From Escherichia phage phiHAO1-1: a stretch of DNA of 40,137 nucleotides. The DNA is taken from the sequence record PP079211.1. One strand, 5' to 3'. The position numbers and the translations under genes were made by a program. Each line of letters starts with the position of its first letter. Position 1 is the stretch's first letter. The notes under the pieces were generated by a model. That model was not told the DNA's origin. It did no database searches and saw only the letters and a program-made list of their open reading frames with translations. Of this stretch, positions 15,815 to 16,472 are shown in pieces.

Positions 15815-16020
15815 GTGAATACTTACGGGTCCTAGCGGCCCTTAAGTCCTGTCCGAAGACCTTCCAGTCCAACTATGTGCGCAACAACGCTGCACTTGTG
15901 GCTGAGGCTGCGAGTCGTGGACATCTAAGCTGCCTGTCTATGGATGGGCGTAACAACGGTGCGTGGGAGATTACCGCTGAAGGCACCAAGTTCCTGAACC
16001 AACACGGAGGCTGTCTATGA
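15811..16020 (+). CDS. gp5.7-like protein
   Basis: 69 aa, near-colinear with recalled T7 gp5.7 (LKSCPKTFQSNYVRNNA.LVAEAASRGH.SCL ... GAWEITA.GT.FL). Confidence 0.8.
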   Translation: MSEYLRVLAALKSCPKTFQSNYVRNNAALVAEAASRGHLSCLSMDGRNNGAWEITAEGTKFLNQHGGCL

Positions 16021-16472
16021 AGATACCTGAAAGTCTGAAAGAGCTGGTCCTTGACATAGGTGAGTGTGAGTGCGAGAAGGAGCACCGCAAGTACGCTGAG
16101 TTCTACGCATCTTGGTCATACACCTTGACAGAGAAGGACGTTGATTCATATACCGAGTCTCCAGCTGAGGCCTATGAGTGGCGTCAGTTCATCGGGCTGA
16201 CCATCGTAGCCAGTGGTATGTGGAATGACAGCTACGGTTCAGAGGTAAATGACTGGGGAGTATATCGCCGGGTTGAGAAGGAGACTGAGATGTCTTCAAA
16301 CTTCTGGAACCTGATGTCCCACCTCAACTCAGAGGACAACGACATGGCACATGAGTTCGCCAACAAATGGCTGAAGCCTGAGGTGACTCTGGAACGTATT
16401 GAGGAGCCTAAAGTTCCCTTGATGCCATATGCAGTCGCTATGGCTACAGGAGGTCTGGACGATGGGTGCTGA
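16017..16472 (+). CDS. Hypothetical acidic protein (151 aa) at the gp5.9 position
   Basis: ATGA coupling to gp5.7; Asp/Glu-rich; no resemblance to recalled T7 gp5.9 (52 aa). Confidence 0.55.
   Translation: MKIPESLKELVLDIGECECEKEHRKYAEFYASWSYTLTEKDVDSYTESPAEAYEWRQFIGLTIVASGMWNDSYGSEVNDWGVYRRVEKETEMSSNFWNLMSHLNSEDNDMAHEFANKWLKPEVTLERIEEPKVPLMPYAVAMATGGLDDGC

Follow-up and report, generated by a model that had tools for sequence, protein, structure and literature searches.

What do T7-like phages carry in the slot between gp5.7 and gene 6, where T7 keeps gp5.9, the inhibitor of RecBCD? The question is raised by an open reading frame (ORF) of 151 aa at 16017..16472 (stop included; this and all other features below lie on the + strand) in the DNA of Escherichia phage phiHAO1-1 (PP079211.1), the whole stretch of which, 40,137 nucleotides (nt), was analysed and is referred to here as the window. 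The ORF lies between homologues of gp5.7 and gene 6, and its assignment to the slot of T7 gp5.9, made in an earlier note from the sequence alone, is correct. As judged from sequence and profile comparisons, the 151-aa protein is a member of the PHROG 4382 family which carries a helix-loop-helix module with an SHLN motif; it is not a member of PF25708, the Pfam family matched by T7 gp5.9, and is not a homologue of T7 gp5.9.

The T7 protein forms a parallel coiled-coil dimer which acts as a DNA mimic, and its structure with RecBCD has been solved (PMC9836394). It inhibits RecBCD and triggers the retron Ec48 and Sir2-HerA (PMC9836394, PMC13434337), it also inhibits MukBEF (PMC7617805), and T3 Gp5.9, when expressed in trans, prevents a process that depends on RecBCD (PMC13192584). 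In bacterial immunity RecBCD is a central hub, which gp5.9 disarms, while gp5.9 is itself sensed by the retron and Sir2-HerA systems, and the content of the slot in phages lacking gp5.9 bears on escape both from RecBCD and from its guards.

The 151-aa ORF is a real gene and is under selection. Its homologues were found in 173 phage records, and the ratio of nonsynonymous to synonymous substitution rates (dN/dS) among five Kayfunavirus alleles is 0.10-0.34, indicating purifying selection. Across three genera of the Autographiviridae, 41-50% identity is kept, invariant motifs included. Identity to the 'hypothetical protein' HAO2_gp26 of Escherichia phage phiHAO2-2 is 99.3%, and the sole family match is PHROG 4382 (E = 9.4e-46), with residues 1-132 aligned to profile positions 6-129 of 130. 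This family is small: of 1.84 billion cluster representatives searched, 27 belong to it at E <= 1e-3, and these come from phage records or phage-like contigs only. Scans of Pfam and NCBIfam with the protein and 53 family members gave no credible family, and sequence searches of the PDB with the single protein and with profiles returned only chance-level matches, such as ANT(4') (E 0.5) and RGM (E 0.01 over 25 residues). No papers on the PHROG 4382 family or the SHLN motif were found in the literature on gp5.9 and RecBCD, Kayfunavirus or accessory regions.

Translation of the ORF is coupled on both sides. Its ATG (16017-16019) overlaps the TGA of gp5.7 (16018-16020) as ATGA, with a good Shine-Dalgarno sequence, GGAGG, read at 16006..16010, 6 nt before the ATG, and its end (stop 16470-16472) overlaps the start of gene 6 at 16462 by 11 nt. 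No terminator-like site was found within 12900-18800, and the promoters nearest to the ORF (CTAAACTATCACTATAGG) are at ~10977 and ~17459; the lack of a terminator and the flanking promoters therefore place it in one DNA-metabolism transcription unit with genes 5, 5.5, 5.7 and 6. The coupling to gp5.7, the overlap with the exonuclease start and the membership of the operon had all been proposed before, and each is borne out. It is a genuine accessory gene of class II, the DNA-metabolism unit.

Allele alignments place a 6-nt tandem duplication, GAGTGT|GAGTGC, at 16062..16073 (residues E16-C19, 'ECEC'), which brings the protein to 151 aa here; most Kayfunavirus alleles encode 149-150 aa, and the usual length is 149. 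Shortened forms occur on otherwise full-length metagenomic phage contigs. P0033 (91 aa) is an in-frame internal deletion of the 149-aa gene with residues 1-52 joined to 113-end, P0122 (43 aa) is another, with residues ~1-19 joined to ~129-end, and P0029 (84 aa) is truncated at the N-terminus, suggesting that the gene is easily lost.

The protein is acidic, but only moderately so. Asp and Glu make up 19.9% and Lys and Arg 9.3% of its residues, giving a net charge of -16 and an isoelectric point (pI) of 4.46, and it ranks approximately fifth in acidity among the products of the phage ORFs. Its net charge per residue is -0.106, versus -0.15 to -0.25 for gp5.9-type proteins (-0.154 for T7 gp5.9, and between -0.21 and -0.25 for the small proteins of gp5.9-like type in sister phages), which is approximately half their charge density. 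As the charge density is below that of T7 gp5.9 and of the small gp5.9-like proteins, the description of the protein as strongly Asp/Glu-rich was right as to its acidity but somewhat overstated.

AlphaFold2 was run on the 151-aa protein with a 53-sequence alignment and gave a mean predicted local distance difference test score (pLDDT) of 80 and a predicted template modelling score (pTM) of 0.60; across residues 1-130 the block means are 75-93. The elements obtained (H, helix; E, strand) are H5-14, E16-23, E28-36, H39-45, H49-56, E61-70, E74-88, H91-102, H109-118 and E122-127. They are predicted to fold into a single compact domain of alpha/beta type (residues 1-130), after which comes a disordered tail; no coiled coil is predicted, and the longest helix has 12 residues. 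The predicted fold had no significant match among solved structures. Of the checks that the earlier note had suggested, the pI thus agrees with an acidic protein, the structure prediction gives a compact alpha/beta fold and no elongated acidic rod, and the homology search yielded no confident match to an unrelated enzyme family, either by sequence or by fold.

Three parts can be told apart within the predicted domain. The N-terminal core (residues 1-90; 16017..16286) comprises a helix, two strands, two helices and a long beta hairpin at a pLDDT of ~78-93; its conserved motifs are E-H-R-K-Y and G-M-W-x-D-S-Y-G-x-E, and K25, G67 and G74 are invariant throughout the family. The B module, the helix-loop-helix (FWNLMSHLNSEDNDMAHEFANKW) at residues 91-120 (16287..16376), was delimited by hhalign and AlphaFold2 and is common to the SHLN-type gp5.9-like proteins. 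The last beta strand of the globular domain follows (EVTLERI, residues 121-130, 16377..16406; E122-127 in the AlphaFold2 model). By eye this strand corresponds to the TITVTKW strand of Erwinia phage Y2 gp59; a MAFFT alignment puts TITVTKW elsewhere. An enzymatic reading of the motifs H-R-K-Y and D-S-Y-G-x-E, as ADP-ribosyltransferase-like or as a nucleotide sponge, was considered and rejected, as structural support for it was absent.

The tail (residues 131-151; 16407..16469; pLDDT < 50) ends in AMATGGLDDGC and simply reflects, in coding form, the ribosome-binding site of gene 6. Its final ~10 codons coincide with the region where translation of gene 6 is initiated, and the Shine-Dalgarno sequence of that gene, GGAGG (16449..16453, read from the sequence and seen in an alignment of regions upstream of gene 6), lies inside the ORF and encodes the Gly-Gly of the tail. 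Approximately 30 nt (GCxATGGCTAxAGGAGGTCTG) are common to the tail and to the unrelated cassette of Salmonella phage CHRF_20041, resulting in a shared 'AMA(T/K)GGL' ending; the corresponding ending there is AMAKGGLRDE (L017:540-576 versus window 16440-16472). Endings of this kind were also seen in ST63, P0030 and P0035. The C-terminal 'GGLDD' was considered as a remnant of the GGVDNW motif found in gp5.9-like proteins, and this was rejected; because these last codons are the gene 6 ribosome-binding region shared with the CHRF_20041 cassette, the resemblance is not homology.

It is through the B module that the ORF is connected to the gp5.9-like proteins. A profile search found P0107, a protein of 85 aa, like Erwinia phage Y2 gp58, that matches PF25708 at E = 1e-13 and has LMSHLNSEDNDMAxEF in common with residues 99-114 of the ORF product. 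The motif F-x-x-L-(M/L)-S-H-L-N-(S/A/G)-E-(D/E)-N-x-(M/L)-A-x-(E/D)-F is present at residues 96-114 of the 151-aa protein, and dozens of small acidic PF25708 proteins (62-85 aa) start with the SHLN motif and continue with a long helix, LEAGGVDNWxGY and an acidic tail. Comparison of the C-terminal halves of the ORF family with these SHLN-type proteins in hhalign gave a probability of 98.7% (E = 4.4e-16, 33 columns), and a local hmmsearch with the SHLN-type profile matched residues 91-120 at E ~1e-11 to 1e-13. At the DNA level the B module is identical to that of Kosakonia phage Kc166A at 37 of 41 nt, the differences apparently lying at synonymous sites. AlphaFold2 of the 67-aa Kc166A protein (pLDDT 84.5) gave H3-14, a loop (LNSEDN) and H21-45, and on these models the helix-loop-helix appears alike in the two types of protein (H91-102, loop and H109-118 here). 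The 'RecBCD inhibitor' labels that the SHLN-type proteins bear rest on the chain of modules set out below and not on experiments.

The T7 protein itself is not reached by these comparisons. The same C-terminal halves gave a probability of 0.1% and no signal in hhalign against T7-type gp5.9, to which the SHLN-type proteins show a weak similarity (E = 0.006). Alignment of T7 gp5.9 to the SHLN motif was tried and rejected, as three alignments gave three registers and the profile comparison was without signal. The statement in the earlier note that the ORF product is unrelated to gp5.9 therefore holds for the T7 protein (hhalign 0.1%, no PF25708 match), but not for 30-33 residues which are homologous to the N-terminal module of other PF25708-family proteins.

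How these proteins can nevertheless share one Pfam family is seen from the model. PF25708 has a gathering score of 24.5 bits, T7 gp5.9 scores 27.8 bits, and the matching SHLN-type proteins score 24.5-54 bits, most of them 44-54. The model covers the part C-terminal to the SHLN motif, and GGVDNW-type proteins dominate it. The Berlinvirus ETEP21B protein is a hybrid with a T7-type N half and a GGVDNW C half, and the gp5.9 proteins of Teetrevirus (T3-group) phages other than T3, as read over this half, carry the GGVDNW half. The hybrid and the sharing of the GGVDNW half by Teetrevirus show that the gp5.9 'family' is, at the level of sequence, a mosaic: A+X in T7, A+Y in ETEP21B, B+Y in the Kc166A-like proteins, and the PHROG 4382 core with an inserted B in the ORF. 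Loci behind this view of PF25708 are L001:3060-3218, L003:2456-2641 and P0157. As far as could be seen, the mosaic relationship of the ORF to the gp5.9-like family has not been described before.

The B module also occurs outside these combinations. It stands alone as a 42-aa protein encoded two genes upstream of a 5'-3' exonuclease gene and after an SSB-like gene (L023:2501-2629, on a 39.7-kb podophage contig), and it is joined to other N-terminal sequences in P0180 and P0163. A near-identical 42-aa B protein in Escherichia phage ECBP5 is labelled 'putative tail spike protein', and looks mis-annotated.

The PHROG 4382 core is likewise found without the hairpin. Proteins of 112 aa on phage contigs of 88-91 kb have the core and lack the SHLN hairpin, SUSP1 gp068 and one Proteus phage protein have the core with a diverged helical insert, and Erwinia phage Y2 gp59 is a hairpin-less homologue of the core (BFVD probability 0.99; hhalign 91.8%, E = 7e-7). 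The hairpin-less proteins carry E-H-R-K-Y and G-M-W-D-D-S-x-G-x-E, and have structural matches in BFVD. In the Loessnervirus Y2 the core gene comes directly after, and overlaps, the SHLN-type gp5.9-like gene (gp58-gp59, L005:2501-3143), and the same adjoining, overlapping pair is present in Pantoea phage SSEM1, also a Loessnervirus (gp64-gp65, L025:901-1543); for the core homologue of this pair hmmsearch gave E = 3e-10. In related contigs the core gene is deleted and the last core strand is fused in frame to the gp5.9-like gene (P0189, 101 aa, L026:1501-1806), and ST32 lacks the core gene entirely. In the Chaseviridae the core and the B-bearing protein are thus neighbours, and in the Autographiviridae they are fused, which is a classical hint of functional linkage, although the adjacency is not universal. 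A gp5.9-like gene as the general neighbour of core-only proteins was considered and rejected, being true in Loessnervirus and not of ST32, the 88-kb contig, SUSP1 or the neighbour of the B-only 42-aa gene in L023.

The position of the ORF is a hypervariable accessory cassette site with the signature of host-interference or anti-defence genes. Its left boundary is exact, as all of the Kayfunavirus loci compared carry ...CACGGAGGCTGTCTATGA, the embedded ATG of which starts the next gene, and each cassette begins at the ATG within the conserved CTATGA of the gp5.7 stop (loci L002, L004, L014-L018). The right boundary is the start of gene 6. A junction query of the slot found 251 records, and insert sizes were read from 22 full-length matches sampled at even spacing. 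The insert was 0 bp in 7 records, ~128 bp in 1 record, ~215 bp, ~260 bp and ~325 bp in 3 records each, and ~440 bp, the cassette of the 151-aa ORF, in 5 records.

At least six mutually unrelated genes, encoding from ~42 to 151 aa, occupy the slot in different Kayfunavirus phages, and at least five of these are others than the 151-aa ORF. They include a 72-aa basic protein in EcoDS1, a 110-aa acidic protein (pI 4.33, net -15) in Salmonella phage ST63 (L016:301-633), a 91-aa protein in Salmonella phage CHRF_20041, a Cys-rich ORF of ~42 aa in TM1 and the 67-aa SHLN-type gp5.9-like protein in Kosakonia phage Kc166A (Kayfunavirus). The ST63 protein has no detectable similarity to the ORF product or to gp5.9-like proteins, and is a second candidate for a role of this kind. 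In the sister Przondovirus phages the gene is a 75-aa B+Y one in 175028, whose product, like that of Kc166A, matches PF25708, and a 127-aa core+B one in 175031, and the slot of the Aarhusvirus Mysterion holds a 128-aa core+B gene; relatives in the same slot are likewise acidic (pI 4.3-4.6). No other gp5.9-like ORF of either type was found in the window by a profile search which included a local hidden Markov model of T7-type gp5.9. Natural swap variants are thus available in near-isogenic phages, with empty, B+Y, core+B and unrelated cassettes, and the question of what the slot does is directly testable.

The account favoured for the 151-aa ORF, though it falls some way short of an even chance, is that it encodes an accessory host-interference protein with RecBCD as the leading target. 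RecBCD leads because T7-group phages carry their inhibitor of RecBCD in this slot, because the only module with annotated relatives is common to the gp5.9 family, and because there is no other candidate inhibitor in the genome. The proposal, for the target as for the mode of inhibition, is an inference from synteny and from a chain of module sharing and not an assignment by homology. On this account the 151-aa protein would inhibit, by stoichiometric protein binding, a hub of host defence or DNA-end processing, with RecBCD as the prime candidate, and would replace a gp5.9-type inhibitor without a coiled coil and without DNA mimicry. The B module of 30 residues is inserted before the last strand of a PHROG 4382 core, and the hairpin may contribute to the recognition of the target. 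That gp5.9 is both an inhibitor and the trigger of retron Ec48 and Sir2-HerA would favour its replacement by structurally different inhibitors. Should the protein inhibit RecBCD without DNA mimicry, it would be an inhibitor of a new class and useful as a tool; should it not, the slot would merit screening as a general hotspot of anti-defence genes.

Several observations weigh against RecBCD inhibition. The ORF product has no module in common with T7 gp5.9, the link being a chain of non-overlapping modules, and PF25708 does not match it, either at full length (E <= 1) or over residues 88-151 (E <= 10). The B hairpin is predicted to pack on the core, and may therefore be a structural and not a recognition element. 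Other members of the family are found in unrelated contexts, between nrd genes or after NAPRTase. The type species K1F has nothing between gp5.7 and gene 6, and many relatives are likewise without a gene here. In addition, no experimental test of any B-module protein was found in the searchable literature.

A bolder and rather doubtful extension is that phages use the SHLN helix-loop-helix as a portable element which targets RecBCD, or a related host DNA-processing or defence hub, and display it on at least three scaffolds: alone (42 aa), with a coiled-coil acidic tail (the gp5.9-like proteins) and inserted in the PHROG 4382 core. Were this so, the 151-aa protein would represent a new, non-DNA-mimic class of inhibitor, and Y2 gp59 (core) and gp58 (hairpin-bearing) would assemble into an equivalent complex of two parts.

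A host-interference or anti-defence protein whose target is not RecBCD but, for example, a different defence system, an SMC (structural maintenance of chromosomes) complex or a nucleoid protein, is nearly as likely, because unrelated cassettes use the site and T7 gp5.9 also hits MukBEF; it is a possibility of perhaps less than one in three. The slot would then be a general cassette site, and the B hairpin a portable structural or interaction element without specificity for RecBCD. The cassettes in the slot (72 aa basic, 91 aa, 110 aa acidic, ~42 aa Cys-rich) are mutually unrelated, and function therefore does not follow from position alone. A specific binding pocket or interface with no relation to DNA mimicry is suggested by the conserved core motifs (K25, Y/H26, the G67..G74 hairpin and many aromatics), core-only relatives in large myophages lie away from recombination genes, and T7 gp5.9 itself has more than one target (PMC7617805). 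What favours RecBCD is that B-module proteins recur in the gp5.9 slot or beside or close to 5'-3' exonuclease genes, and that the gp5.9 family is the only annotated family sharing a module with the ORF. The exonuclease also figures in an explanation internal to the phage, a replication or recombination factor that modulates, for example, the gene 6 exonuclease or phage DNA-end metabolism. It would fit the 11-nt coupling to gene 6 and the place in the DNA-metabolism unit, the stand-alone B-only gene two genes upstream of the exonuclease in an unrelated podophage contig, and the Loessnervirus pair among ligase, dUTPase and exonuclease genes. However, such a role is unlikely given that the gene is missing from many close relatives with near-identical gene 6, that the alternative cassettes are unrelated in sequence, and that the coupling belongs to the site, since every cassette, and gp5.7 in K1F, is coupled to gene 6 alike.

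The composition of the protein invites comparison with the classical DNA mimics, in which an acidic surface imitates the DNA backbone, as in gp5.9, Ocr and Gam. A pI of 4.46, a net charge of -16 and 19.9% Asp and Glu fit this, as does the pI range of 4.3-4.6 in the same-slot relatives, but with a charge density approximately half as high as in T7 gp5.9 or the small gp5.9-like proteins, a predicted globule in place of an elongated helical rod, and best-conserved residues that are Lys, glycines and aromatics and not acidic ones, mimicry is improbable. The earlier note had offered a DNA mimic or another anti-defence factor; the compact globule and the halved charge density tell against the former, and the hypervariable slot and the module common to gp5.9-like proteins are in keeping with the latter. 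That the gene is a dispensable passenger without selected function, for example a decaying recombination remnant, is scarcely credible, even though in-frame internal deletion variants exist in metagenomic contigs (P0033 and P0122) and the slot is empty in many relatives. The dN/dS values among alleles, the identity and invariant motifs kept across three Autographiviridae genera and the confident fold prediction all speak for a selected protein, and host interference, with RecBCD as the leading target, remains the preferred reading.

The window is the genome of a Kayfunavirus T7-like phage; over 15300-17400 it shares 99.7% identity with Escherichia phage phiHAO2-2. Upstream of the ORF, the gp5.7 homologue (69 aa; 15811..16020; phrog_1334) has 77% identity to T7 gp5.7 (E = 9e-43). 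Gene 6, the 5'-3' exonuclease, lies downstream at 16462..17331 (Pfam 5_3_exonuc_N E = 4.8e-9; phrog_107 E = 1.9e-80). Its start at ATG 16462 (MGAEKKIALV...) matches the annotation in YZ1, SFPH2 and IME278; the longest possible exonuclease ORF begins at 16429. At 15354-15530 and 15530-15814 there are a small acidic ORF and then a gp5.5-like gene. The small acidic ORF (52-58 aa, phrog_20928) is located between the DNA polymerase gene and the gp5.5-like homologue of the H-NS inhibitor. Both gp5.5 and gp5.7 of the window match PHROG 17900, a 5.5-5.7 fusion product, and a T7-type frameshift fusion may therefore exist here too.

The nearest upstream phage-type promoter (CTAAACTATCAC..TAGG) is at 10972..10996 (repeat families D1, D2) and the next, 3' of gene 6, is at 17454..17478 (repeat families D1-D3). 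The promoter consensus of the phage RNA polymerase, CT(A/T)AACTATCACTATAGG(G/A)A, has 11 copies in the window, which start at ~2594, 5663, 7697, 8677, 10977, 17459, 20279, 21259, 25903, 33179 and 39436. An intergenic repeat, TAGnnTTAGACTCAAGGTCAT...GTGGCCTTTATGnTTA, is present at 5677-5733, 13134-13179 and 37028-37084, one copy being just 5' of the DNA polymerase gene, and looks like the RNase III processing sites of T7-like phages.

Among known systems, T7 gp5.9 is the obvious comparison. The ORF resembles it in the slot between gp5.7 and gene 6, in its transcription unit, in its non-essential accessory status and in its acidity. The ORF product differs in length (151 aa versus 52 aa in T7), in its predicted compact alpha/beta domain as opposed to a coiled-coil dimer, and in having no detectable sequence or profile similarity to gp5.9, the profile of the ORF family not finding the gp5.9 chain in the PDB. 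With the SHLN-type proteins, such as those of Kc166A (QVV96871.1, 67 aa) and Klebsiella phage 175028 (WWT42019.1, 75 aa) and Erwinia phage Y2 gp58, it has in common the helix-loop-helix of ~30 residues and the identical slot in phages of the same genera. In those proteins, however, the motif is N-terminal and is followed by the long helix, LEAGGVDNWxGY and the acidic tail, the part modelled by PF25708, whereas here it is inserted in the globular core and the C-terminal LEAGGVDNWxGY part is absent. The N-terminal core is homologous to the hairpin-less PHROG 4382 proteins (Y2 gp59, SSEM1 gp65, SUSP1 gp068 and the 112-aa contig proteins), which differ from the ORF product in that their hairpin is absent or diverged and in their other genomic contexts, the core being a separate gene in Loessnervirus.

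With lambda Gam and P22 Abc2, which are small accessory proteins that neutralise or redirect RecBCD (PMC9836394), there is a possible functional analogy only. The locus as a whole resembles the accessory regions of phages described as variable anti-defence hotspots (bioRxiv 10.1101/2023.04.06.535777), with conserved flanks, exact boundaries, unrelated alternatives and empty alleles; this cassette family is absent from the text of that paper and from the supplements of the follow-up paper. Among these systems, the 151-aa ORF is best described as one of the accessory host-interference genes of the gp5.9 slot.

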